A stretch of DNA of 64,000 nt from Eledone cirrhosa (taxonomy: Eukaryota). The notes below the pieces were generated by a model that had not been told where the DNA came from, made no database searches, and saw nothing but the letters and a program-made list of their open reading frames with translations. The position numbers were made by a program, and so were the translations under genes. Location of the stretch: NCBI GenBank assembly GCA_964016885.1, contig OZ024748.1, positions 26,598,001-26,662,000 on the forward strand. The letters are read 5' to 3'. Positions 4,806 to 62,182 of the stretch are shown piece after piece; position 1 is the first letter of the stretch, and each line of letters opens with the position of its first letter.

Positions 4806-5699
4806 AATATTGGCATGGGTTCAATGAGTTATCACAGTCAGAGACTACACAGATCAGGGAGAGACCATCTTGCTCATACATTCCATATTTGGGATGGTTT
4901 CTAAAGCCAAAGGCTCTTCCTAACACCAACCACCTTACAGGATGTACAGGGTGTTTTTATCATGCCATGAGCACTGTTAATTTACAGAATGAACTGATGT
5001 ATTTTATAATGGCACCAGCACCAGAAATGTCATAAGCTTGGTCAGACTAAAGATTCCTTTTTACCTCATATAGTCTCAATTTGAATGTCAGCTACATTAC
5101 AGAGTGTACTGGGTGCTTTCTATCATAGCACCAAAGTTATCTCAGTATGTTTCAGATACAAACCCACAAACATACACATACATAAACTCATACACATGAA
5201 TATACACATAAACACACAAACTCATACACATTTGCATAAATATGTCCACCAATTTATAGCCCCTACACACACACTCTCTCTCCACTTTCCACTGAGTGAT
5301 AGACCTCTGCACCAGTGTCTAGAGTGGGAAAATATTTTTTTTTTTTGAAAAATATTGTTTATAACAAAATTTCTGTTAAATAAGATCTTCAGGGAGAAGA
5401 AGCAAAAACCACAGTTAAAAAGATTGTGTCTATAGAATTTTATTGTAAAATGAAAAGGCCATAAAATATCAAAGACAGTAATCCAGAGATTAAACTGGCA
5501 CTTTTGTGGAAGATGATTTATTGAATTTTACCCTGCAAAGTGTAGTTTTCTAAACAAGTCTGACACAAATCAGGCAACCTTTAGAAATGTATTTGCTCTA
5601 AGAAAGTCTTCAGAAAACTAAAATTTAAAACATTTCACACCATTCTACACAATAGTTAACACTTTCTGGAATCCTCTGGCTTTCAAGCAAAAGTTCAGT

Positions 5700-6500
5700 T
5701 AAAAGGACTTAAAAGCTGAAGTTTTATGCTGACTTGAATGTTCTTTGTTGGAACTTGCAACAGATCAGTTCCCCATGAAAATAACACACACTTTAGTGTT
5801 AAGCTTCACTTTTGTTTGTTGGTACCCAATACAATGAACTCAAATGGGCTGAAATGTTTAATATAGATATTTGGAGACATTTCATTTTTTGACAAGCAAC
5901 CAAGTGATACAAAATCTTTTGAGCAAAATCTAATGATCTCAGTTTGAAGTGAAGGACTGAGAAACAATGCAAATCTGCTTTTATAATGTTTTCATGGCAC
6001 TGACCCTGCCTTTTACTACTAGAATATGATATCTTGCTAGCACCCAATTTCTCCCATGCTTCCTTGAAGGAATTATAATCCTTTGTTATCTGGAATCCCT
6101 TGGGTAAAAATGAAATATGATTTGCATCAGCTCATGTGGGTGGCATAAATGACAGAATGCACCACTATGAAGAAGAGATACCACCTTGCCATCAATCATT
6201 TTATGTCATTCACTGTGACATATAAACCAAAACTTTCCCTGATAACATCCAAAGAAAGATCAAGTTCTACAGACAGCACATCTTGATCCTCTACACCCAG
6301 TACCAAGGAAACTGGACAAATAAACACTGTGTTGTTTGGAACAGGGTTTGTCCAAATAATGTTATTAGCAAGCCATAATTCTAATGGGCAATAACAAGAC
6401 AAAATAAATGAGGTCCTTTTTGTTGGGTTCAGAGTACCATAGAGAGACACTCTTTCTCTAAGTATGCCAAATTTATCACTATGAAGTAACTGATAAAACT
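5700..6500 (-). pseudogene. RAG1/Transib-superfamily transposase fossil (frameshifted, internally deleted)
   Basis: Collinear minus-strand pieces across frameshifts: KFGI...SFILSCYCPLELWLANNIIWTNPVPNNTVFICPVSLVLGVEDQDVL; MIDGKVVSLLHSGAFCHLC; ADANHISFLPKGFQITKDYNSFKEAWEKL...KRQGQCHENIIKADLHCFSVLHFKLRSLDFAQKILYHLVA. Order matches RAG1/Transib core motifs (NPxP, second catalytic Asp in DGK/DEK, CxxC, LH). Confidence 0.75.
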
Positions 6501-6789
6501 TATAAATTCAATACATTTATTTTTCTGCCAATCACAAATCATGGCAATTAAGCAATTTTTGCAGCAAATGCCAGAAAAAGAAATCAAGTTATATCTTTAA
6601 AATTAGATGCTTTCTTTGAATAGTTTTAATTCCATTATTTGCAGCTTGCTAAAATGCTTCTGACAAGCTATAAACGACTTCGCCGTGTCAATTTTTTGCG
6701 GAGATATGAATTTATTCCTAAATTTGGCATTATGGGTGGACTGTGCTCTAGTTTTTGTTAGGATATCATTCTAGAAGAAAAACTGATGT

Positions 6790-7319
<530 letters not shown>

Positions 7320-9774: not shown

Positions 9775-11005
9775 CAACAACTGCAGCAATGTCTAATAAC
9801 AACCACCACATCAACAACAATAACAACTGCAGCAATGTCTAATAACAACCACAACATCAACAACAATAACAACTGCAGCAATGTCTAATAACAACCACAA
9901 CATCAACAACAACAACAACTGCAGCAATGTCTAATAACAACCACAACATCAACAACAACAACAACTGCAGCAATGTCTAATAACAACCACAACATCAACA
10001 ACAACAACTGCAGCAATGACTAATAACAACCACCACATCAACAACAACAACAACTGCAGCAATGTCTAATAACAACCACAATATCAACAACAACAACTGC
10101 AGCAATGTCTAATAACAACCACAACAACAACAACAATAACAACTGCAGCAATGTCTAATAACAACCACAACATCAACAACAATAACAACTGCAGCAATGT
10201 CTAATAACAACCACAACATCAACAACAACAACAACTGCAGCAATGTCTAATAACAACCACAACAACAACAACAATAACAACTGCAGCAATGTCTAATAAC
10301 AACCACAACATCAACAACAACAACAACTGCAGCAATGTCTAATAACAACCACAACAACAACAACAATAACAACTGCAGCAATGTCTAATAACAACCACAA
10401 CATCAACAACAACAACAACTGCAGCAATGTCTAATAACAACCACAACAACAACAACTGCAGCAATGTCTAATAACAACCACAACAACAACAACAATAACA
10501 ACTGCAGCAATGTCTAATAACAACCACAACATCAACAACAATAACAACTGCAGCAATGTCTAATAACAACCACAACATCAACAACAACAACAACTGCAGC
10601 AATGTCTAATAACAACCACAACAACAACAACAATAACAACTGCAGCAATGTCTAATAACAACCACAACATCAACAACAATAACAACTGCAGCAATGTCTA
10701 ATAACAACCACAACATCAACAACAACAACAACTGCAGCAATGTCTAATAACAACCACAACATCAACAACAACAACAACTGCAGCAATGTCTAATAACAAC
10801 CACAACATCAACAACAACAACAACTGCAGCAATGTCTAATAACAACCACAACAACAACAACAATAACAACTGCAGCAATGTCTAATAACAACCACAACAT
10901 CAACAACAATAACAACTGCAGCAATGTCTAATAACAACCACAACATCAACAACAATAACAACTGCAGCAATGTCTAATAACAACCACAACATCAACAACA
11001 ACAAC
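9775..11005. repeat. Minisatellite, about 46-bp unit AACTGCAGCAATGTCTAATAACAACCACAACATCAACAACAATAAC
   Basis: About 26 tandem copies that vary in the number of AAC triplets. Confidence 0.95.
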
Positions 11006-12934
11006 AACATCAGTAATAACACCAACAACAACATCAACAACCATAATATCATAACCATCACAACTTCCACATCAACCACAATAATACCATCAATATTAAC
11101 AACAACAACACCAACAACAATAACAACAACACCATCAATATTAACAACCTCAACAACCACAACAACATCCATAACAACATCCATAACAACATCCATAACA
11201 ACAACAGCACCACCAATATTAACAACTACAACACCAACAACATCCACAACAACAACAGCACCATCCTCAACCACAACAGCAGCAGCACCGACAACAAACA
11301 CAACAACCACAACACCAACAACAGCACGGGGTGCAGGGTGGGCTCAACCACAACACCAACAACAACCACAACAACAGCACCGTCCTCAACCACAACAACA
11401 ACCACAACACCAGCAACAGCACGAGGTGGGGGGGGGGGGCTCAACCACAACAACAACAACAGAACAACAACCACAACACCAACAACAGCACGGGGTGGGG
11501 AGGGGGGCTCAACCACAACACCAACAACATCCACAACACCAACAACAACAGAACAACAACCACAACACCAACAACAGCACGGGGTGGGGAGGGGGGCTCA
11601 ACCACAACGCCAACAACATCCACAACAACAACAACAACAACCACAGCACCAACAACATCCACAACAACAACAACAACAACACCAATATTAACAACTACTG
11701 CTCAGTGTATCAATTGTTTTGTTTCTGGGAACCATTCCGCCCTCCCTCCCTCTTCCTTGTATGGCAGTTTTGATGAATGACTTCTTCAATTGTCATCAGA
11801 TGCTCTCTCTCTCTCTCTCTGTATGTGTATGTGGTTATATCTATGGATGTGTATGTATGTGTGTGTGTGTGTTATGTATGTATGTGTGTGTGGTTGTATC
11901 TATGGATGTGTGTGTATGTGTGTGTTTATGTATGTATGTATGTATGTATGTATGTGTGTGTGGTTGTATCTATGGATGTGTGTGTATGTGCGTGAGTGGT
12001 TGTATGTATGTATGTGTGTGTGGTCGTATCTATGGATGTGTATGTATGTGTGTTTTTTATGTATGTATGTGTGTGGTTGTATCTATGGGTGTGTGTATGT
12101 GTGAGTGGTTGTGTGTATGTGTGTGTGGTTGATTCTATGAATGTGTATGTATGTGTGCATGTGTTTTTTATGTATGTATGTGTGATTGGTTGTATCTATG
12201 GATGTGTGTGTATGTGTGTGTTTATGTATGTATGTATGTGTGTGGTTGTATCTATGGATGTGTGTGTGGTTGTATTTATGGATATGTGTGTATGTGTGTG
12301 TTTATGTATGTATGTATGTGTGTGGTTGTATCTATGGATGTGTGTATGTGCGTGAGTGGTTGTATGTATGTATGTGTGTGTGTGGTTGTATCTATGGATG
12401 TGTATGTATGTGTGTGTTTTTTATGTATGTGTGTGGTTGTATCCATGGGTGTGTGAATGTGTGAGTGGTTGTATGTATGTATGTGTGTGTGTGGTTGTAT
12501 CTATGGGTGTGTGTGTATGTGTGTGAGTGGTTGTATGTATGTGTATGTGGTTGTATCTATGGATGTGTGTATGTGTGTGTTTTTATGTATGTATGTGTGT
12601 GTGGTTGTATCTATGAATGTGTATGTATGTGTGCGTGTGTTTTTTATGTATGTATGTGTGATTGGTTATATGTATGTATGTGTGTGTTTTTTATGTATGT
12701 ATGTGTGTGTGGTTGTATCTATGGATGTGTGTGTATGGATGTGTGTGTCCATATGTGTGTGTGTGTGTGTCCATATGTGTGTGTGTGTATGTCTCTACAC
12801 ACCAGTTATATTACAATGCAATTCACTCTCTCACTCTCACTCCAACTCTCTCACTTTCACAGTTTCTCTTTCACTCCCTCTCTTTCTCACTCATTCTCAT
12901 TATCTCTTTCTCCTATCTTCACACTTTCTTTCTA

Positions 12935-26843: not shown

Positions 26844-28881
26844 TTTGAGTCTCAGTCATTGATGTTAGTTAACTGGAAAGTTTGTTGAAATGAATATCAA
26901 GCCACTACCTGCAGCCTCAGATATTCAGGACGTATCGGAGGGTTCTTGCTGTTCCCAGCAAGCATGCTTTTTGAAGCGTTCCAAAAAGCGTGAAGGGGCC
27001 AATTTTCTTTAACCATCCCTGGAAACTTTTTGAGATAGTACCTAGTGCGCCTATGACAATCGGGACCACTTTGACTTCATGGCAGTTCCAAATCCTTTTT
27101 ACCTCCCACTTTAAGTCCTGGTATCGGTTAATTTTCTCCCTCTCCTTCTCTTGCACTCTTGTGTCGAATGGGCAGGCCACATCCACAATCAGGCACGATC
27201 TTTTTTCTTTGTCCAAAACCACCAGGTCAGGTCTATTGTGTTCCAGTTTCTTGTCCGTCTGTATCCTAAAATCCCACAGCATCTTCACCTGATCGTTTTC
27301 TATCACCGACTCTGGCTTATGCTCATACCACTTCTCAGAATGTGGTAAATTGTTTACTTTGCATAGGTGCCAGTGGATCACCCTGCCCATCACATCATGT
27401 CTCCAGCCCTTATAGTGAGTCTGGGCTAGGTGTTTACACTCGGATACAATGTGAGCCACAGTCTCCTCTCTCTCTCCACAGATCCTGCACAGTGGGCTAG
27501 CCTCCTCCTTGTAAATATGGTGATCCAACCACTTCGTTTTGAGGGCCTGCTCTTGCGCAGCCATTAACATTCCTTCTGTAGCCTTTTTAAGGTCTCCTCT
27601 TTTCAACCAGTTCCATGTCTGTGTATCTCTAAATTCAGTTTTCTCAAAGAAGGTACTATGAAGGGATTTTTCCTGAAGGCTGCTCTTTCTCCTTGTTGTT
27701 ATTTCCTCCCTGGACATCCCCTCGTCTATTGTCCTCTCCTTCAGTACAGTTCTGAGCATTGGCTCCTTACTATCAGTCACGTATTTGTGTAGGTTGTTTT
27801 TCTCCATCTGAACACAGTCCTCTATGCTGATAAGACCTCTTCCACCTTCAGATCTCCTTAAGTAGAGTCTATCGACATCACTCCTCTTGTGGAACATGTT
27901 GTAGATAGTCAATAATTTCCTAGTCTTCCTATCCATTTCTTTTTGTTCAGCAACATTCCATCTCAGAATTCCCGCACTGTACCTAATAATAGACACAGCT
28001 CGGAAATTTACTGCACTTATGGCATTCCTACTGTTCAGATGTGACTTTAATACGCTCCTTACTCTCCGAATGTATTCAGTTCTTATCAATTCCTTCATTT
28101 TTTTGTTCTTGATGTCATCAGCCTCCAGAACACCCAAATACTTGTATCCTTCTTCAGTGTCAATTTCCTTTATCATCTCACCTGTTGGTACCTGGATTCC
28201 GTTGCTTCTGCTCAATTTACCCCTCTTCATCACAAGGACTCCACACTTACTAATACCAAATTGCATACATATATCATTGCTGAAAATACGGACAGTGTCA
28301 ACAAGCACATCCAACTCCTTCTCGCTCTTCCCGAAGAGCTTAAGATCGTCCATGAAGAGGAGGTGATTGATGGTAAGCTCTCCCTTTCCCAACTTGTATC
28401 CTGCTCTCACTTTTCGCAGTATAATGGTCAGGGGCATCAGGGCAAGGACAAACAACAGAGGGGACAGACTATCTCCCTGGAAGATATCTCTCTTGATCTT
28501 CACGCCTCCCAAGGATTCTCCAGCTGATGTTAACTCTGTTTCCCAGGACTTCATACTTTTGCCCAACAACTGTCTGATGTTATCTGCCACCTTGAAGATC
28601 TCTAGGCTTTTGGTGATCCAAGAATGAGGCACCATGTCAAATGCCTTTTTGTAGTCTATCCATCCCATGGCAAGACCAGTGTGTCTCCTCTTGCAATTCC
28701 TCATTACCATCTTATCAATAAGTAACTGGTCCTTTGTACCACGGGACTTCTTTCGGCATCCTTTCTGTTCGTCCGGCCGGTAACAAGCTGTTTGTGTGGA
28801 GGTGATGGTAGATTTCCTCAGACATAATGCTTGTCAACAGTTTCCACATTACGGACAGACATGTGATAGGTCTATAGTTGG
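26844..28881 (-). mobile_element. 5'-truncated R4/Dong-like non-LTR retrotransposon inserted in a (TAA)n microsatellite
   Basis: Flanked by (ATT)n on both sides (26812-26843, 28882-28906). Begins at NYRPITCL with one CCGG-duplication frameshift near 28775. Confidence 0.9.
26917..28710 (-). CDS. RT + CCHC zinc knuckle + restriction-like endonuclease ORF (partial) of the R4/Dong-like element
   Basis: [68 protein letters not shown]...IVDVACP...KINRY. 597 codons without a stop. Confidence 0.9.
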
Positions 28882-45626: not shown

Positions 45627-47936
45627 TACTGACCCCAGGGGTAGGGATGTAACACAGTCAGTATTGATACACTGACCCCAGGGGTAGGGATGTAACACAG
45701 TCAGTATTGATACACTGACCCCAGGGGTAGGGATGTAACACAGTCAGTATTGATACACTGACCCCAGGGGTAGGGATGTAACACAGTCAGTATTGATACA
45801 CTGACCCCAGGGGTAGGGATGTAACACAGTCAGTATTGATACACTGACCCCAGGGGTAGGGATGTAACACAGTCAGTATTGATACACTGACCCCAGGGGT
45901 AGGGATGTAACACAGTCAGTATTGATACACTGACTCCAGGGGTAGGGATGTAACACAGTCAGTATTGATACACTGAGCCCAGGGGTAGGGATGGAACAGT
46001 CAGTATTGATACACTGACCCAGGGGTAGGGATGTAACACAGTCAATATTGATACACTGACCCCAGGGGTAGGGATGTAACACAGTCAGTATTGATACACT
46101 GACTCCAGGGGTAGGGATGTAACACAGTCAGTATTGGAATAGTGACCCCAGGGGTAGGGATGTAACACAGTCAGTATTGATACACTGACCCCAGGGGTAG
46201 GGATGTAACACAGTCAGTATTGATACACTGACCCCAGGGGTAGGGATGTAACACAGTCAGTATTGATACACTGACCCCAGGGGTAGGGATGTAACACAGT
46301 CAGTATTGATACACTGACCCCAGGGGTAGGGATGTAACACAGTCAGTATTGATACACTGACCCCAGGGGTAGGGATGTAACACAGTCAGTATTGATACAC
46401 TGACCCCAGGGGTAGGGATGGAACACAGTCAGTATTGATACACTGACCCCAGGGGTAGGGATGGAACACAGTCTGTATTGATACACTGACCCAGGGGTAG
46501 GGATGTAACACAGTCAGTATTGATACACTGACCCCAGGGGTAGGGATGGAACAGTCAGTATTGATACACTGACCCCAGGGGTAGGGATGGAACAGTCAGT
46601 ATTGATACACTGACCCCAGGGGTAGGGATGTAACACAGTCTGTATTGATACACTGACCCAGGGGTAGGGATGTAACACAGTCAGTATTGATACACTGACC
46701 CCAGGGGTAGGGATGTAACACAGTCTGTATTGATACACTGACCCTGGGGTAGGGATGTAACACAGTCAGTATTGATACACTGACTCCAGGGGTAGAGATG
46801 TAACACAGTCAGTATTGATACACTGACTCCAGGGGTAGGGATGTAACACAGTCAGTATTGATACACTGACCCCAGGGGTAGGGATGTAACACAGTCAGTA
46901 TTGATACACGTGGGGGAGGGTGCTCTGAAAGTACAGTAGCTAGAGTCAGAACTGGATGGAAAAAGTTCAGAGAGCGTATACCACTATTAGCCGCTAGAGG
47001 GTTCTCCCTAAATATGAAAGGCAGGTTATACGATGCCTGCATACGAACAGCAATGCTGCATGGCAGTGAGACCTGGGCATTGTGTGCAGAGGATATACGC
47101 AGACTAGAGAGGAACGAAGCTTGCATGCTCCGCTGGATGTGCAATAGTAATATACGTGAACGGCAAAGCATAAACGAACTAAGGAAAAAATTAGAAATAA
47201 GAGGGATCAGATGTTGTTTACTCGAGAGAAGGCTACGTTGGTACGGTCACGTGATGCGCATGAAAGACGACAGCTGTATAACAAAGTGCAGGGCAATAAA
47301 GATAGACGGTAGCCACGGAGTAGGCAGACCCAGAAAAACATGGGACGAGCTGATAAATTCCGACCTCACATGCTTACACCTCTCCAAGACAATGTCACTG
47401 GACCGAGACCTTTGGCGGTACTCAGTAATAGAGAAGACCCGCCTTACCTAAATACAAAGTAAAAACCTACTACAGTCAGTAGGCATCTCTATCAAAACAC
47501 CCCCCCGTCCCACCACCTCCACCCCATCCACACCACCCCTTTCAATGTAAAGTTATGTTGGTCCCACAACATCCAGGCCGAAACAAATGAGATCGTGTAG
47601 GTGTCACGATAAAAAAACACACAGTCCACGCTGTAAATGTGGCCGTGTAGGCAACACGGTAAAAACCTCCCAGCCCCACACTGTAAATGTGGTTGGTGTT
47701 AGGAAGGGCATCCAGCTGTAGAAAACCCGCCAGACAGTCCACGCTGTAATGTGGCCGTGTAGGCAACACGGTAAAAACCTCCCAGCCCCACACTGTAAAT
47801 GTGGTTGGTGTTAGGAAGGGCATCCAGCTGTAGAAAACCCGCCAGACAGTCCTATGCGAGCAAGACAACCACTCTTGCCTCAAGTGGGAAAACCCCCGTC
47901 CAAACCCATGAAAGCGTGGAACACGGACGCTAAACC

Positions 47937-47969
<33 letters not shown>

Positions 47970-49590
47970 CCCCAGGGGTAGGGATGTAACACAGTCAGTA
48001 TTGATACACTGACTCCAGGGGTAGGGATGTAACACAGTCAGTATTGATACACTGACCCCAGGGGTAGGGATGTAACACAGTCAGTATTGATACACTGACC
48101 CCAAGGGTAGGGATGTAACACAGTCAGTATTGATACACTGACCCCAGGGGTAGGGATGGAACAGTCAGTATTGATACACTGACCCCAGGGGTAGGGATGT
48201 AACACAGTCAGTATTGATACACTGACTCCAGGGGTAGGGATGTAACACAGCCAGTATTGATACACTGACCCCAGGGGTAGGGATGTAACAGTCAGTATTG
48301 ATACACTGACCCCAGGGGTAGGGATGTAACACAGTCAGTATTGATACACTGACCCCAGGGGTAGGGATGTAACACAGTCAGTATTGATACACTGACCCCA
48401 GGGGTAGGGATTTAACACAGTCAGTATTGATACACTGACCCCAGGGGTAGGGATGGAACAGTCAGTATTGATACACTGACCCCAGGGGTAGGGATGTAAC
48501 ACAGTCAGTATTGATACACTGACTCCAGGGGTAGGGATGTAACACAGTCAGTATTGATACACTGACCCCAGGGGTAGGGATGTAACACAGTCAGTATTGA
48601 TACACTGACCCCAGGGGTAGGGATGTAACACAGTCAGTATTGATACACTGACCCCAGGGGTAGGGATGTAACACAGTCAGTATTGATACACTGACCACTG
48701 GGGTAGGGATGTAACACAGTCTGTATTGATACACTGACCCCAGGGGTAGGGATGTAACACAGTCAGTATTGATACACTGACTCCAGGGGTAGGGATGTAA
48801 CACAGTCAGTATTGATACACTGACTCCAGGGGTAGGGATGGAACAGTCAGTATTGATACACTGACCCCAGGGGTAGGGATTTAACACAGTCAGTATTGAT
48901 ACACTGACCCCAGGGGTAGGGATGGAACAGTCAGTATTGATACACTGACCCCAGGGGTAGGGATGGAACAGTCAGTATTGATACACTGACCCCAGGGGTA
49001 GGGATTTAACACAGTCAGTATTGATACACTGACCCCAGGGGTAGGGATGGAACAGTCAGTATTGATACACTGACCCCAGGGGTAGGGATGTAACACAGTC
49101 AGTATTGATACACTGACCCCAGGGGTAGGGATGTAACACAGTCAGTATTGATACACTGACCCCAGGGGTAGGGATGTAACACAGTCTGTATTGATACACT
49201 GACTCCAGGGGTAGGGATTTAACACAGTCAGTATTGATACACTGACCCCAGGGGTAGGGATGGAACAGTCAGTATTGATACACTGACCCCAGGGGTAGGG
49301 ATGTAACACAGTCAGTATTGATACACTGACTCCAGGAGTAGGGATGTAACACAGTCAGTATTGATACACTGAGCCCAGGGGTAGGGATGTAACACAGTCA
49401 GTATTGATACACTGAGCCCAGGGGTAGGGATGTAACACAGTCAGTATTGATACACTGACTCCAGGGGTAGGGATGTAACAGTCAGTATTGATACACTGAC
49501 TCCAGGGGTAGGGATGGAACAGAGTCAGTATTGGAATAGTGACCCCAGGGGTAGGGATGGAACAGAGTCAGTATTGGAATAGTGACCCTA
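45627..49590. repeat. 43-bp satellite GACCCCAGGGGTAGGGATGTAACACAGTCAGTATTGATACACT, interrupted by an RTE insertion
   Basis: Period 43 (45631, 45674...), with 41-42-bp variants. Confidence 0.95.
46910..47969 (+). mobile_element. Young 5'-truncated RTE LINE with intact ORF end, 3'UTR and (TGA)n tail
   Basis: KGRLYDACIRTAMLHGSETW...RRLRWYGHVMR...GRPRKTW...DRDLWR, stop at 47451. (GAT)n at 47937-47969. Confidence 0.92.
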
Positions 49591-49836: not shown

Positions 49837-51896
49837 TATATAATAGTGTTTAGTAGTGTTGGTACTATAATAGTGTTTAGTAGTGTTGGTACTATAATAG
49901 TGTTTAGTAGTGTTGGTACTATAATAGTGTTTAGTAGTGTCGGTACTACAATAGTGTTTAGTAGTGTTGGTACTATAATAGTGTTTAGTAGTGTTGGTAC
50001 TATAATAGTGTTTAGTAGTGTTGGTACTACAATAGTGTTTAGTAGTGTTGGTACTATAATAGTGTTTAGTAGTGTTGGGACTATAATAGTGTTTAGTAGT
50101 GTTGGTACTATAATAGTGTTTAGTAGTGTTGGTACTACAATAGTGTTTAGTAGTGTTGGGACTATAATAGTGTTTAGTAGTGTTGGTACTATAATAGTGT
50201 TTAGTAGTGTTGGTACTACAATAGTGTTTAGTAGAGTTGGTACTATAATAGTGTTTAGTAGTGTTGGGACTATAATAGTGTTTAGTAGTGTTGGTACTAT
50301 AATAGTGTTTAGTAGTGTTGGTACTATAATAGTGTTTAGTAGTGTTGGTACTACAATAGTGTTTAGTAGTGTTGGTACTACAATAGTGTTTAGTAGTGTT
50401 GGTACTATAATAGTGTTTAGTAGTGTTGGTACTATAATAGTGTTTAGTAGTGTTGGTACTAGAATAGTGTTTACTAGTGTTGGTACTATAATAGTGTTTA
50501 GTAGTGTTGGTACTACAATAGTATTTAGTAGTGTTGGTACTACAATAGTGTTTACTAGTGTTGGTACTACAATAGTGTTTAGTAGTGTTGGTACTATAAT
50601 AGTGTTTAGTAGTGTTGGTACTATAATAGTGTTTAGTAGTGTTGGTACTATAATAGTGTTTAGTAGTGTTGGTACTATAATAGTGTTTAGTAGTGTTGGT
50701 ACTACAATAGTGTTTAGTAGTGTTGGTACTACAATAGTGTTTAGTAGTGTTGGTACTATAATAGTGTTTAGTAGTGTTGGTACTATAATAGTGTTTAGTA
50801 GTGTTGGTACTATAATAGTGTTTAGTAATGTTGGTACTATAATAGTGTTTAGTAGTGTTGGTACTATAATAGTGTTTAGTAGTGTTGGTACTACAATAGT
50901 GTTTAGTAGTGTTGGTACTACAATAGTGTTTAGTAGTGTTGGTACTACAATAGTCTTTAGTAGTGTTGGGACTATAATAGTGTTTAGTAGTGTTGGTACT
51001 ATAATAGTGTTTAGTAGTGTTGGTACTATAATAGTGTTTAGCAGTGTTGGTACTATAATAGTGTTTAGTAGTGGTGGTACTATAATAGTGTTTAGTAGTG
51101 TTGGGACTATAATAGTGTTTAGTAGTGTTGGTACTACAATAGTGTTTATTAGTGTTGGTACTATAATAGTGTTTAGTAGTGTTGGTACTACAATAGTGTT
51201 TAGTAGTGTTGGTACTACAATAGTGTTTAGTAGTGTTGGTACTACAATAGTGTTTAGTAGTGTTGGGACTATAATAGTGTTTAGTAGTGTTGGTACTATA
51301 ATGGTGTTTAGTAGTGTTGGTACTATAATAGTGTTTAGTAGTGTTGGTACTATAATAGTGTTTAGTAGTGGTGGTACTATAATAGTGTTTAGTAGTGTTG
51401 GGACTATAATAGTGTTTAGTAGTGTTGGTACTACAATAGTGTTTAGTAGTGTTGGTACTACAATAGTGTTTAGTAGTGTTGGTACTACAATAGTGTTTAG
51501 TAGTGTTGGTACTATAATAGTGTTTAGTAGTGTTGGTACTATAATAGTGTTTAGTAGTGTTGGTACTAGAATAGTGTTTACTAGTGTTGGTACTATAATA
51601 GTGTTTAGTAGTGTTGGTACTACAATAGTGTTTAGTAGTGTTGGTACTACAATAGTGTTTAGTAGTGTTGGTACTACAATAGTGTTTAGTAGTGTTGGTA
51701 CTATAATAGTGTTTAGTAGTGTTGGTACTATAATAGTGTTTAGTAGTGTTGGTACTATAATAGTGTTTAGTAGTGTTGGTACTATAATAGTGTTTAGTAG
51801 TGTTGGTACTATAATAGTGTTTAGTAGTGTTGGTACTACAATAGTGTTTAGTAGTGTGGCTACTACAATAGTGTTTAGTAGTGGTGGTACTATAAT
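49837..51896. repeat. 27-bp satellite TAGTAGTGTTGGTACTATAATAGTGTT
   Basis: About 76 copies. It gives the 9-aa periodic ORFs on both strands. Confidence 0.97.
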
Positions 51897-55526: not shown

Positions 55527-58500
55527 GTGTGTGTATATATATATGTTGTTGTTGTGCAACTTTGTGTGTATATATATATGCTGTTGTTGTGCAACTTTGT
55601 GTGTATATATATATATATGCTGTTGTTGTGCAACTTTGTGTGTATATATATATGTTGTTGTTGTGCAACTTTGTGTGTATATATATATGCTGTTGTTGTG
55701 CAACTTTGTGTGTATATATATATGTTGTTGTTGTGCAACTTTGTGTGTATATATATATATATGCTGTTGTTGTGCAACTTTGTGTGTATATATATATGTT
55801 GTTGTTGTGCAACTTTGTGTGTATATATATATGCTGTTGTTGTGCAACTTTGTGTGTATATATATATGTTGTTGTTGTGCAACTTTGTGTGTATATATAT
55901 ATATATGCTGTTGTTGTGCAACTTTGTGTGTATATATATATGTTGTTGTTGTGCAACTTTGTGTGTATATATATATGCTGTTGTTGTGCAACTTTGTGTG
56001 TATATATATATGCTGTTGTTGTGCAACTTTGTGTGTATATATATATGTTGTTGTTGTGCAACTTTGTGTGTATATATATATGCTGTTGTTGTGCAACTTT
56101 GTGTGTATATATATATGTTGTTGTTGTGCAACTTTGTGTGTATATATATATGCTGTTGTTGTGCAACTTTGTGTGTATATATATATATATGCTGTTGTTG
56201 TGCAACTTTGTGTGTATATATATATGCTGTTGTTGTGCAACTTTGTGTGTATATATATATGCTGTTGTTGTGCAACTTTGTGTGTATATATATATATATG
56301 CTGTTGTTGTGCAACTTTGTGTGTATATATATATGCTGTTGTTGTGCAACTTTGTGTGTATATATATATGCTGTTGTTGTGCAACTTTGTGTGTATATAT
56401 ATATGTTGTTGTTGTGCAACTTTGTGTGTATATATATATGCTGTTGTTGTGCAACTTTGTGTGTATATATATATGTTGTTGTTGTGCAACTTTGTGTGTA
56501 TATATATATGCTGTTGTTGTGCAACTTTGTGTGTATATATATATGCTGTTGTTGTGCAACTTTGTGTGTATATATATATGCTGTTGTTGTGCAACTTTGT
56601 GTGTATATATATATGCTGTTGTTGTGCAACTTTGTGTGTATATATATATATATGCTGTTGTTGTGCAACTTTGTGTGTATATATATATGCTGTTGTTGTG
56701 CAACTTTGTGTGTATATATATATGTTGTTGTTGTGCAACTTTGTGTGTATATATATATGCTGTTGTTGTGCAACTTTGTGTGTATATATATATATATGCT
56801 GTTGTTGTGCAACTTTGTGTGTATATATATATGCTGTTGTTGTGCAACTTTGTGTGTATATATATATGCTGTTGTTGTGCAACTTTGTGTGTATATATAT
56901 ATATATGCTGTTGTTGTGCAACTTTGTGTGTATATATATATGCTGTTGTTGTGCAACTTTGTGTGTATATATATATGCTGTTGTTGTGCAACTTTGTGTG
57001 TATATATATATGTTGTTGTTGTGCAACTTTGTGTGTATATATATATATATGCTGTTGTTGTGCAACTTTGTGTGTATATATATATGTTGTTGTTGTGCAA
57101 CTTTGTGTGTATATATCTATATATGCTGTTGTTGTGCAACTTTGTGTGTATATATATATATATGCTGTTGTTGTGCAACTTTGTGTGTATATATATATGT
57201 TGTTGTGCAACTTTGTGTGTATATATATATATGCTGTTGTTGTGCAACTTTGTGTGTATATATATGTTGTTGTTGTGCAACTTTGTGTGTATATATATAT
57301 ATATGCTGTTGTTGTGCAACTTTGTGTGTATATATATATGTTGTTGTTGTGCAACTTTGTGTGTATATATCTATATATGCTGTTGTTGTGCAACTTTGTG
57401 TGTATATATATATATATGCTGTTGTTGTGCAACTTTGTGTGTATATATATATATATATATGCTGTTGTTGTGCAACTTTGTGTGTATATATATATGCTGT
57501 TGTTGTGCAACTTTGTGTGTATATATATATATGCTGTTGTTGTGCAACTTTGTGTGTATATATATATGCTGTTGTTGTGCAACTTTGTGTGTATATATAT
57601 ATGTTGTTGTTGTGCAACTTTGTGTGTATATATATATGTTGTTGTTGTGCAACTTTGTGTGTATATATATATATATGCTGTTGTTGTGCAACTTTGTGTG
57701 TATATATATATATATGCTGTTGTTGTGCAACTTTGTGTGTATATATATATGTTGTTGTTGTGCAACTTTGTGTGTATATATATATGCTGTTGTTGTGCAA
57801 CTTTGTGTGTATATATATATATATGCTGTTGTTGTGCAACTTTGTGTGTATATATATATATGCTGTTGTTGTGCAACTTTGTGTGTATATATATATGTTG
57901 TTGTTGTGCAACTTTGTGTGTATATATATATATGCTGTTGTTGTGCAACTTTGTGTGTATATATATATGTTGTTGTTGTACAACTTGGTGTGTATATATA
58001 TATATATGCTGTTGTTGTGCAACTTTGTGTGTATATATATATGCTGTTGTTGTGCAACTTTGTGTGTATATATATATGCTGTTGTTGTGCAACTTTGTGT
58101 GTATATATATATATATGCTGTTGTTGTGCAACTTTGTGTGTATATATATATATGCTGTTGTTGTGCAACTTTGTGTGTATATATATATGTTGTTGTTGTG
58201 CAACTTTGTGTGTATATATATATATATGCTGTTGTTGTGCAACTTTGTGTGTATATATATATATGCTGTTGTTGTGCAACTTTGTGTGTATATATATATG
58301 CTGTTGTTGTGCAACTTTGTGTGTATATATATATGCTGTTGTTGTGCAACTTTGTGTGTGTATATATATGCTGTTGTTGTGCAACTTTGTGTGTATATAT
58401 ATATGTTGTTGTTGTGCAACTTTGTGTGTATATATATATGCTGTTGTTGTGCAACTTTGTGTGTATATATATATGTTGTTGTTGTGCAACTTTGTGTGTA

Positions 58501-61500
58501 TATATATATGCTGTTGTTGTGCAACTTTGTGTGTATATATATATATATGCTGTTGTTGTGCAACTTTGTGTGTATATATATATGCTGTTGTTGTGCAACT
58601 TTGTGTGTATATATATATGCTGTTGTTGTGCAACTTTGTGTGTATATATATATATGCTGTTGTTGTGCAACTTTGTGTGTATATATATATGCTGTTGTTG
58701 TGCAACTTTGTGTGTATATATATATGCTGTTGTTGTGCAACTTTGTGTGTATATATATATGTTGTTGTTGTGCAACTTTGTGTGTATATATATATGCTGT
58801 TGTTGTGCAACTTTGTGTGTATATATATATGTTGTTGTTGTGCAACTTTGTGTGTATATATATATGCTGTTGTTGTGCAACTTTGTGTGTATATATATAT
58901 ATATGCTGTTGTTGTGCAACTTTGTGTGTATATATATATGCTGTTGTTGTGCAACTTTGTGTGTATATATATATGCTGTTGTTGTGCAACTTTGTGTGTA
59001 TATATATATATATGCTGTTGTTGTGCAACTTTGTGTGTATATATATATGCTGTTGTTGTGCAACTTTGTGTGTATATATATATGTTGTTGTTGTGCAACT
59101 TTGTGTGTATATATATATGCTGTTGTTGTGCAACTTTGTGTGTATATATATATATATGCTGTTGTTGTGCAACTTTGTGTGTATATATATATGCTGTTGT
59201 TGTGCAACTTTGTGTGTATATATATATGCTGTTGTTGTGCAACTTTGTGTGTATATATATATATATGCTGTTGTTGTGCAACTTTGTGTGTATATATATA
59301 TGCTGTTGTTGTGCAACTTTGTGTGTATATATATATGCTGTTGTTGTGCAACTTTGTGTGTATATATATATGTTGTTGTTGTGCAACTTTGTGTGTATAT
59401 ATATATATATGCTGTTGTTGTGCAACTTTGTGTGTATATATATATGTTGTTGTTGTGCAACTTTGTGTGTATATATCTATATATGCTGTTGTTGTGCAAC
59501 TTTGTGTGTATATATATATATATGCTGTTGTTGTGCAACTTTGTGTGTATATATATATGTTGTTGTGCAACTTTGTGTGTATATATATATATGCTGTTGT
59601 TGTGCAACTTTGTGTGTATATATATGTTGTTGTTGTGCAACTTTGTGTGTATATATATATATATGCTGTTGTTGTGCAACTTTGTGTGTATATATATATG
59701 TTGTTGTTGTGCAACTTTGTGTGTATATATCTATATATGCTGTTGTTGTGCAACTTTGTGTGTATATATATATATATGCTGTTGTTGTGCAACTTTGTGT
59801 GTATATATATATATATATGCTGTTGTTGTGCAACTTTGTGTGTATATATATATGCTGTTGTTGTGCAACTTTGTGTGTATATATATATATGCTGTTGTTG
59901 TGCAACTTTGTGTGTATATATATATGCTGTTGTTGTGCAACTTTGTGTGTATATATATATGTTGTTGTTGTGCAACTTTGTGTGTATATATATATGTTGT
60001 TGTTGTGCAACTTTGTGTGTATATATATATATATGCTGTTGTTGTGCAACTTTGTGTGTATATATATATATATGCTGTTGTTGTGCAACTTTGTGTGTAT
60101 ATATATATATATGCTGTTGTTGTGCAACTTTGTGTGTATATATATATGCTGTTGTTGTGCAACTTTGTGTGTATATATATATATATGCTGTTGTTATGCA
60201 ACTTTGTGTGTATATATATATGCTGTTGTTGTGCAACTTTGTGTGTATATATATATGCTGTTATTGTGCAACTTTGTGTGTATATATATATATATGCTGT
60301 TGTTGTGCAACTTTGTGTGTATATATATATGCTGTTGTTATGCAACTTTGTGTGTATATATATATGTTGTTGTTGTGCAACTTTGTGTGTATATATATAT
60401 ATATATGCTGTTGTTATGCAACTTTGTGTGTATATATATATGCTGTTGTTGTGCAACTTTGTGTGTATATATATATGCTGTTGTTGTGCAACTTTGTGTG
60501 TATATATATATGTTGTTGTTGTGCAACTTTGTGTGTATATATATATATATGCTGTTGTTGTGCAACTTTGTGTGTATATATATATGCTGTTGTTGTGCAA
60601 CTTTGTGTGTATATATATATGCTGTTGTTGTGCAACTTTGTGTGTATATATATATGCTGTTGTTGTGCAACTTTGCGTGTGTATATATATATATGCTGTT
60701 GTTGTGCAACTTTGTGTGTATATATATATGCTGTTGTTGTGCAACTTTGTGTGTATATATATATGTTGTTGTTGTGCAACTTTGTATATATATATATATG
60801 CTGTTGTTGTGCAACTTTGTGTGTATATATATATGCTGTTGTTGTGCAACTTTGTGTGTATATATATATGTTGTTGTTGTGCAACTTTGTGTGTATATAT
60901 ATATGCTGTTGTTGTGCAACTTTGTGTGTATATATATGTTGTTGTTGTGCAACTTTGTGTGTATATATATATATATGCTGTTGTTGTGCAACTTTGTGTG
61001 TATATATATATGTTGTTGTTGTGCAACTTTGTGTGTATATATATATGCTGTTGTTGTGCAACTTTGTGTGTATATATATATGTTGTTGTTGTGCAACTTT
61101 GTGTGTATATATATATATATATGCTGTTGTTGTGCAACTTTGTGTGTATATATATATGCTGTTGTTGTGCAACTTTGTGTGTATATATATATGCTGTTGT
61201 TGTGCAACTTTGTGTGTATATATATATGTTGTTGTTGTGCAACTTTGTGTGTATATATATATGCTGTTGTTGTGCAACTTTGTGTGTATATATATATGTT
61301 GTTGTTGTGCAACTTTGTGTGTATATATATATGCTGTTGTTGTGCAACTTTGTGTGTATATATATATATATGCTGTTGTTGTGCAACTTTGTGTGTATAT
61401 ATATATATATGCTGTTGTTGTGCAACTTTGTGTGTATATATATATGTTGTTGTTGTGCAACTTTGTGTGTATATATATATATGCTGTTGTTGTGCAACTT

Positions 61501-62182
61501 TGTGTGTATATATATATGCTGTTGTTGTGCAACTTTGTGTGTATATATATATGCTGTTGTTGTGCAACTTTGTGTGTATATATATATATATGCTGTTGTT
61601 GTGCAACTTTGTGTGTATATATATATATATGCTGTTGTTGTGCAACTTTGTGTGTATATATATATGCTGTTGTTGTGCAACTTTGTGTGTATATATATAT
61701 ATATATATGCTGTTGTTGTGCAACTTTGTGTGTATATATATATATATGCTGTTGTTGTGCAACTTTGTGTGTATATATATATGTTGTTGTGCAACTTTGT
61801 GTGTATATATATATATATGCTGTTGTTGTGCAACTTTGTGTGTGTATATATATGCTGTTGTTGTGCAACTTTGTGTGTATATATATATATATGCTGTTGT
61901 TGTGCAACTTTGTGTGTATATATATATGCTGTTGTTGTGCAACTTTGTGTGTATATATATATATATATGCTGTTGTTGTGCAACTTTGTGTGTATATATA
62001 TATATATGCTGTTGTTGTGCAACTTTGTGTGTGTATATATATGCTGTTGTTGTGCAACTTTGTGTGTATATATATATATATGCTGTTGTTGTGCAACTTT
62101 GTGTGTATATATATATATGCTGTTGTTGTGCAACTTTGTGTGTATATATATATGCTGTTGTTGTGCAACTTTGTGTGTGTAT
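55527..62182. repeat. 6.6-kb minisatellite, about 35-bp unit G(C/T)TGTTGTTGTGCAACTTTGTGTG(TA)nT
   Basis: Roughly 180 copies with variable (TA)n. It lacks stop codons in the plus frames, hence the >2000-aa pseudo-ORFs. Confidence 0.97.

Follow-up and report, generated by a model that had tools for sequence, protein, structure and literature searches.

A degraded transposase on the minus strand

The window, i.e., the whole stretch of 64,000 nucleotides that was analysed, carries on its minus strand, at 5310-6745, a 1,436-bp transposon that extends beyond the 5700-6500 segment to which attention had first been drawn. Its limits come from an alignment of the window copy with 40 other loci fetched from the same genome (L021-L060), in which the copies stop sharply at window positions 6745 and 5310. 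We recognize the following features, given from the 5′ to the 3′ end of the element:

6746-6750, minus strand: 5′ target-site duplication TAGAG, four of its five letters as in the 3′ copy CAGAG
6731-6745, minus strand: 5′ terminal inverted repeat CACAGTCCACCCATA (family majority CACAGTGCACCCAGA)
6433-6730, minus strand: 5′ subterminal non-coding part, including KFGI (6474-6463), with no similarity to residues 1-270 of intact relatives
6432-6440, minus strand: junction of the family-wide 5′ deletion, with a microhomology of ~3 bp (GCA)
5886-6432, minus strand: transposase remnant, including part of the RNase H domain, residues 274-466 of P0003, a ~710-aa Transib transposase
near 6200 and 6138, minus strand: frameshifts, with an in-frame TGA directly after the CxxC
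6193-6191, minus strand: codon of the second catalytic Asp (MIDGK)
6163-6143, minus strand: CxxC, followed by a long alpha11-12-like segment
5957-5949, minus strand: LH motif
5878-5894, minus strand: junction of the ~1.07-kb deletion of the window copy, with ATG microhomology
5324-5885, minus strand: 3′ non-coding part, with an extra deletion of ~85 bp near 5445
5310-5323, minus strand: 3′ terminal inverted repeat TCTAGACACTGGTG, decayed (family majority TCTGGGTGCACTGTG)
5305-5309, minus strand: 3′ target-site duplication CAGAG, placed by eye, one base off the automatic end call

The first-pass annotation, made from the letters alone, had stitched a RAG1/Transib-like transposase out of four motif blocks in three minus-strand frames, and all four were found in collinear order where it had placed them: CPLEL..IIWTNPVPNN..ICPVSLV..VEDQD in a frame open from 6507 to 6199, MIDGK at 6199-6185, GAFCHLC at 6163-6143, and GFQITK..W..RQG..FSVLH ending at 5949. 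Two open fragments (103 and 110 codons) appear in the window's list of open reading frames. The upstream fragment has HzTransib as its best PDB match at a non-significant E of 0.53, the downstream fragment has no match in the PDB, and a Pfam scan of three window fragments gave no RAG1 or transposase match. The fragments gain their significance because intact relatives bridge them to Transib. With residues 1-82 of the downstream fragment as the query, 26 of 47 candidate proteins were related at E<=1e-3, seven of which are 702-723 aa long and 54-75% identical to it. One intact relative, P0003 (711 aa), aligns to the window copy at E 4e-57 and in turn detects HzTransib in the PDB at E 3e-21 (RAG1, E 0.037), which bears out the reading of the locus as a fossil, frameshifted transposase of the RAG1/Transib superfamily. 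The frameshift-aware comparison proposed as a check on that reading, run here against P0003, pairs 122 identical residues out of 203 (60%) across one stop and two frameshifts, and its score of 564 compares with 31-39 for eight shuffles and 34 for the opposite strand. The remnant proper spans P0003 residues 274-466, as the tail of the alignment past 466 crosses a deletion junction and is non-homologous. Of the three catalytic acidic residues, which are visible across L040 and the family consensus, the window copy keeps the second Asp alone.

Elsewhere in the window, a 638-codon stop-free frame at 26917-28833 (minus strand) carries a reverse transcriptase domain (RVT_1, E 9e-17) and, at its C-terminus, a zinc-binding and nuclease-like region; it is likely a young, 5′-truncated LINE. 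Large minisatellites lie at 9776-11008, 13949-14817, 20063-21151, 45628-49576, 49839-51896 and 55528-62178 (periods 46, 56, 48, 43, 27 and 35/109 bp, respectively; 92-98% match), and the majority of the window's very long but spurious open frames are due to them. Very high-copy short repeats, covered by reads thousands of times more deeply than the element, occupy both of its sides at 4850-5150 and 6875-7024.

Element ends and target sites

The majorities of 22 5′ ends and 23 3′ ends agree over the 15 bases CACAGTGCACCCAGA, beyond which the two ends diverge. This shared end opens with the exact RSS heptamer CACAGTG, and its first 25 bases find 14 matches in the genome at <=2 mismatches against none for the reversed control. 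Among 13 two-ended copies, perfect 5-bp duplications are seen in four (CATTG, CAATG, CTTGC and CAGAG), four of five letters are duplicated in two, and none to three of five in six. The automatic duplication score of the window copy is 0 because of a one-base shift at its 3′ end; placed by eye, the pair is TAGAG/CAGAG. The flanks of the insertions lean to CANNG and have a GC fraction of 0.51 vs 0.37 in the window. The CAC-starting terminal repeats and 5-bp duplications that the first-pass annotation had named as things to look for are present, as 15-bp ends and in 4 of the 13 copies, respectively; the hallmarks of Transib named in the available text of Kapitonov and Jurka (PMC1131882) are CAC ends, 5-bp duplications and targets rich in GC.

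In sequencing run X1, which may derive from the assembly's own sample, two contigs match the window at 100% identity across each end of the element; no RNA run is among the sequencing runs listed. Run X4, from a second organism, contains related pieces with about 6-14% differences, none of which, among the pieces listed, spans the ends of the window insertion.

Two deletions, one shared and one private

The commonest form of the family is 2,664 bp long, and its homology to the transposase begins only at residue about 273. Across the 41 loci examined (window included), 28 show the upstream anchor, and 25 of these have the same 5′ junction; L040, L041 and L047 are without it and continue differently. 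L040 retains residues 74-711 and with them the first catalytic Asp, in KIGVDG. L041 retains the gene start, which aligns to residue 1 of P0011 and lies ~600-715 bp from the 5′ end, about 300-400 bp beyond the 5′ subterminal part of the window copy. We infer that the shared deletion removed 1.1-1.2 kb, comprising the remainder of the leader, the start codon, the NBD-like and dimerisation regions and the first catalytic Asp, and that the full-length element measured about 3.8-3.9 kb. The first-pass annotation had the first catalytic motif deleted directly after KFGI (6474-6463): the Asp is indeed missing, through the family-wide deletion, but KFGI was never its neighbour. As the sequence preceding this Asp, KFGI is rejected by L040 and L041, whose layouts place it upstream of the gene start and therefore in the non-coding leader. 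A tandem duplication of ~110 bp lies over the gene start of L041 (L041:2170-2400), the only copy found that keeps the start.

The window copy suffered a further loss of ~1.07 kb at 5886, which took the His pair, the catalytic Glu, the CTT1-like tail, the stop codon and part of the 3′ region, and which is found in this copy only. For the deleted family form there is a published parallel in the Nozomi/Kodama Transib pair of Drosophila (bioRxiv 10.64898/2026.08.26.747230), compared here by the description given in the available part of that preprint: there too, a single precise internal deletion with microhomology produced a non-autonomous form, which is more numerous than the full-length element. 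Nozomi, however, is young and has autonomous copies, whereas the fossil family is ~10% decayed, with none found intact.

Decay of the family in the genome

A DNA search of the genome, in which 40 of 1,288 candidates were scored, gave at least 57 matching pieces. The divergence of 35 copies from their consensus has a median K2P of 0.095 (range 0.073-0.197; window copy 0.076), the pairwise median over 525 pairs is 0.179, and the 29 best-covered copies form a largely star-like tree. Substitutions relative to the consensus are distributed 927/886/788 over codon positions 1/2/3, and pN/pS is 0.86 over 9,204 codons, with 147 stops. For the window copy the corresponding values are 1.09 over 176 codons and 16/12/11. 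The copies thus decay near-neutrally, and the window copy displays no sign of domestication.

With P0003 as the query, at least 79 genome matches were obtained (63 of 106 candidates scored); seven are stop-free, none of them longer than 78 residues, and among the matches listed a single one extends upstream of residue 271. The intact copies for which such a protein-versus-genome search had been proposed did not turn up: none is present among the matches listed from the 40 of 1,288 DNA candidates and the 63 of 106 protein-query candidates scored. The more distant clade member P0047 yielded 56 matches, by eye nearly all of the fossil family, and no second family.

Physically close copies tend to resemble each other. 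Seven copy pairs lie on one contig no more than 6 Mb apart, and five of them are among the top 9 when 708 pairs are ordered by shared derived changes, the neighbour pairs sharing changes being window copy/L029, L023/L027, L042/L050, L025/L033 and L035/L042; all three starred pairs in the copy tree are same-contig neighbours, their flanks nonetheless being different. In the pair formed by the window copy and L029, 21 of 27 shared changes fall inside one 320-bp stretch, and segmental duplication is ruled out as the source of their resemblance by the differing flanks and target sites. Such patchy sharing suggests gene conversion among neighbouring copies or late local hopping. The coding region of the family (L021-L060 and the window copy) also has 21 dinucleotide sites at which both TG and CA occur at >=15%, and several recurrent stops arise at Arg codons via a TG/CA change, i.e., the pattern of CpG decay, which suggests that the copies were CpG-methylated in the germ line. 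In L029 a 55-bp inverted duplication in the 3′ region (L029:2724-2821) adjoins a deletion, and short inverted pieces are also found in L022, L025 and L043.

Affinities with Transib and RAG1

A profile of 13 family sequences matches HzTransib at E 1.1e-35 (126 bits), as against 1.1e-6 to 7.8e-5 for RAG1 and 5e-6 for BbeRAG1L (24-30 bits for the two), thereby favouring HzTransib by 29 orders of magnitude. This enzyme of Helicoverpa zea (PDB 6PQN), a classical Transib of Subgroup II, is the best solved-structure match in both sequence and fold, and shares the K-x-G-x-D-G, M-I-D-G-K, CxxC, LH and E-x-x-N-K motifs with the fossil family; it differs in having ~33 aa fewer between CxxC and LH and a CTT2-type tail, and identity is about 20%. 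The predicted fold, from a low-confidence model (pLDDT 66, pTM 0.39), fits Transib and RAG1 about equally (E 1.6e-16 vs 1.2e-15). The P element, another DDE family that might have matched better according to the first-pass annotation, proves a far worse fit to the same low-confidence model (Foldseek E 9e-4, rank 50, TM 0.15). P elements duplicate 8 bp of target; no 8-bp duplications were found, with at most five of eight letters agreeing under rough end calls. The intact relatives show no evident Cys/His-rich N-terminus of the kind expected from the Chapa zinc finger of Chapaev, the other family named there. Among look-alikes in the atlas, the nearest clusters are unnamed eukaryotic proteins at 0.95.

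The part of the protein that departs from classical Transibs is the zinc-binding region. Here the first-pass annotation was right in seeing a CxxC-to-LH segment more like that of RAG1: it measures 68 aa in the window copy and its clade vs 32-36 aa in six short-type Transibs, a RAG1-like length. Likewise, the second Asp and the Glu are 261 aa apart in the family consensus vs 206-214 aa in the six short-type proteins, while the available text of PMC1131882 gives spacings of 206-214 for Transib and 253 for RAG1. Retention of alpha11-alpha12 is read from this length and an alignment with zebrafish RAG1, the model being of low confidence there.

At 81% identity, an unnamed fragment is the protein nearest to the family consensus, with the intact P0003 at 69%. 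Intact relatives are 702-723 aa long and have their first Asp at about 250. An unrooted tree of 76 rows (73 long, core-covering proteins out of 220 search relatives, plus three fossil rows; groups labelled by motif; no RAG1 or RAG1L rows) places the fossil rows inside a clade of 38 rows (SH-aLRT 100, stem 0.83) that is separate from the six short-type rows. The alignment of this clade with other long-segment Transibs runs over the full length (probability 100, E 7e-80).

Among the relatives, P0003, P0006, P0009-P0012, P0021, P0025 and P0041-P0045 are intact, unnamed Transib transposases of 700-720 aa, many of them encoded on contigs of 2.6-4.1 kb. They have E-x-W-N-K around the catalytic Glu, and their CTT1 tail lacks the last Cys; the P0021 cluster includes members on megabase contigs. 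The metagenome collection contributed three short contigs without recognisable paired ends from 151 candidates, the bacterial collection one 29-residue match from 215 candidates, which we take as chance, and none of 148 candidates among viral contigs was related.

Subgroup I or a separate lineage

Subgroup I Transibs (e.g., MleTransib_3931, PbaTransib_8175 and HvuTransib-9) retain alpha11-alpha12 in the zinc-binding domain, have a CTT1 tail (Cx2Cx3GHx4C) and asymmetric bipartite terminal repeats, and are without RAG2L (Tao et al. 2022, PMC9435367). Judged from its sequences, the fossil family likely belongs to this already described RAG1-like subgroup, with which it shares the long CxxC-to-LH segment, the Cx2Cx3GH part of the tail and the single gene; the named members were compared with the fossil clade by eye. 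It differs in a Trp after the catalytic Glu, in the fourth CTT1 Cys lost from its clade, and in that no spaced end element is demonstrated. Specifically, Cx2Cx3GH is present in 16 of 17 tailed clade members and the fourth Cys in none of the 17, whereas CTT1 is complete in all eight tailed members of the sister clade; in the window copy the tail is deleted. The two ends differ after 15 bp, and their best shared inner 11-mer is equalled by 47 of 300 shuffles.

These same differences, together with the long, fully supported stem of the 38-row clade, could mark a separate, unnamed subgroup of the Transib superfamily outside Subgroup I as defined in 2022. The text of the PMC9435367 supplement, whose tree and alignment pages are images, has no match to WNK and none to six cephalopod names. 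We consider such a separate subgroup unlikely, given that the long segment and the tail are common to proteins that by eye resemble the ctenophore Subgroup I motifs in the available part of that supplement, and that the clade aligns end to end with other long-segment Transibs. A decidedly improbable extension of this idea is that of an undescribed, widespread Transib lineage, characterized by E-x-W-N-K, a RAG-type zinc domain, a three-ligand CTT1 and exact CACAGTG ends, which would be the closest sister of RAG1L among single-gene elements. Relative to RAG1L, the clade is placed by profile scores and motifs, because the tree is without RAG1 and RAG1L. Were it true, the intact ~710-aa members would be test enzymes for how a RAG1-like transposase acted on RSS-heptamer ends before RAG2.

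The case for and against a RAG-like element

The first-pass annotation had gone further and proposed that the lineage was RAG-like (RAGL/ProtoRAG) and informative on how the V(D)J recombinase arose. On such a reading the fossil would be a remnant of a ProtoRAG/TransibSU-type element, or of a lineage nearer to RAG1L than are other Transibs, with its RAG2L lost or deleted. There are real resemblances to RAG1 and RAG1L (PDB 4WWX, 3JBW and 6B40; available text of PMC7204232 and PMC4411706): the fold, the catalytic layout, the long zinc-domain segment, which has some RAG1-like residues besides its RAG1-like length in the zebrafish RAG1 alignment, an Asp-to-Glu spacing of 261-264 aa in the fossil clade vs 253, the exact CACAGTG heptamer at the ends, the 5-bp duplication, and a CTT motif in which the fossil clade and invertebrate RAG1L are alike. 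RAG1 clusters also appear among the atlas look-alikes (0.88-0.90), and RAGL elements are known in molluscs, as described in the available text of PMC7204232.

The more discriminating features nevertheless point away from RAGL, which we regard as highly improbable. Besides the 29 orders of magnitude in favour of HzTransib, the Pfam RAG1 profile gives 19-25 bits in three of eight clade members and is absent in five, and some other long-segment Transibs score higher on it (35-48 bits in 4 of 18). The motif around the second Asp is the Transib-type MIDGK, not YDEK. The available text of PMC4411706 places TransibSU by a core nearer to RAG1 than to Transib, with >30% identity; structural alignment of the fossil family with RAG1 and BbeRAG1L gives 16-18%. 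There is no N-terminal zinc-finger/RING region of the RAG1 type in the ~710-aa intact relatives, nor an extension before the L041 start, which corresponds to residue 1 of P0011; it is an N-terminal extension that separates RAG1L from Transib in the available text of Martin et al. (2020, PMC7204232). A 12/23 nonamer is rejected, the best candidates matching at five of nine positions at spacers 11-13 or 22-24, and a seven-of-nine match occurs at spacer 39, at the 5′ end only.

Nor is there room for the accompanying RAG2L gene, a search for which had been part of the same proposal. The kelch-PHD (RAG2L) gene codes for about 450-530 aa (available text of PMC1131882 and PMC4411706), and the region from the stop codon to the 3′ end of the element is 1,049 bp long with at most 64 stop-free codons in any frame, which is too small for even a decayed kelch-PHD gene; the 5′ leader is about 600-715 bp. 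Searches of the genome with the Pfam RAG1 and RAG2 profiles gave no matches, the control genomes being equally without match.

Finally, it is vanishingly improbable that the two open fragments stem from a domesticated host gene, or from a spliced gene with introns in place of the frameshifts, as the breaks are 1-bp-scale frameshifts and a short deletion, the window copy has a pN/pS of 1.09 with changes spread evenly over codon positions, two of the three catalytic residues are deleted, and dozens of copies are equally decayed.

A proposed history of the element

We posit that the window holds, very probably, the dead remains of a single-gene Transib DNA transposon, shortened by two deletions; it is likely a Subgroup I type and was likely moved in trans by full-length members. 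The full-length element would have coded for a ~710-aa DDE transposase that, by analogy with established Transib/RAG chemistry, is predicted to bind the 15-bp CACAGTG-starting ends and to excise the element in a cut-and-paste reaction via nick-hairpin cleavage; a staggered insertion, with a leaning to CANNG targets, would then produce the 5-bp duplication. An early derivative probably lost the start codon and the first catalytic Asp and afterwards became the commonest form, and, since this form has neither, its enzyme would have been borrowed in trans. The family appears to have spread mostly in one old burst followed by near-neutral decay. The window copy then lost its additional ~1.07 kb, including the catalytic Glu. 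The window copy can yield no active enzyme.

Significance

The locus is a real but ordinary transposon fossil that adds a member to the Transib family, and its proposed bearing on how V(D)J recombination arose is not supported. The fossil alone says little on that origin because RAG1-like single-gene Transibs and molluscan RAG1L-RAG2L pairs have already been published. Among the titles listed on octopus and cephalopod Transibs, molluscan RAG1L, Subgroup I and CTT1, none describes the fossil family, which may already carry a Repbase or Dfam name. According to the available text of one survey (PMC10294476), a single Transib ORF was present across 39 mostly molluscan genomes, and the fossil documents that Transib once invaded a genome in which surveys built on ORFs would overlook it. 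Beyond this, it draws attention to intact, unnamed transposases that form a clade and in which the segment equivalent to the RAG2-binding one is retained in the absence of RAG2. Their likely end sequence, opening with the exact RSS heptamer, is provided by the fossil family. It is these intact relatives, rather than the window copy, that are suited to testing the long segment and the CTT1 tail in a RAG2-free enzyme.
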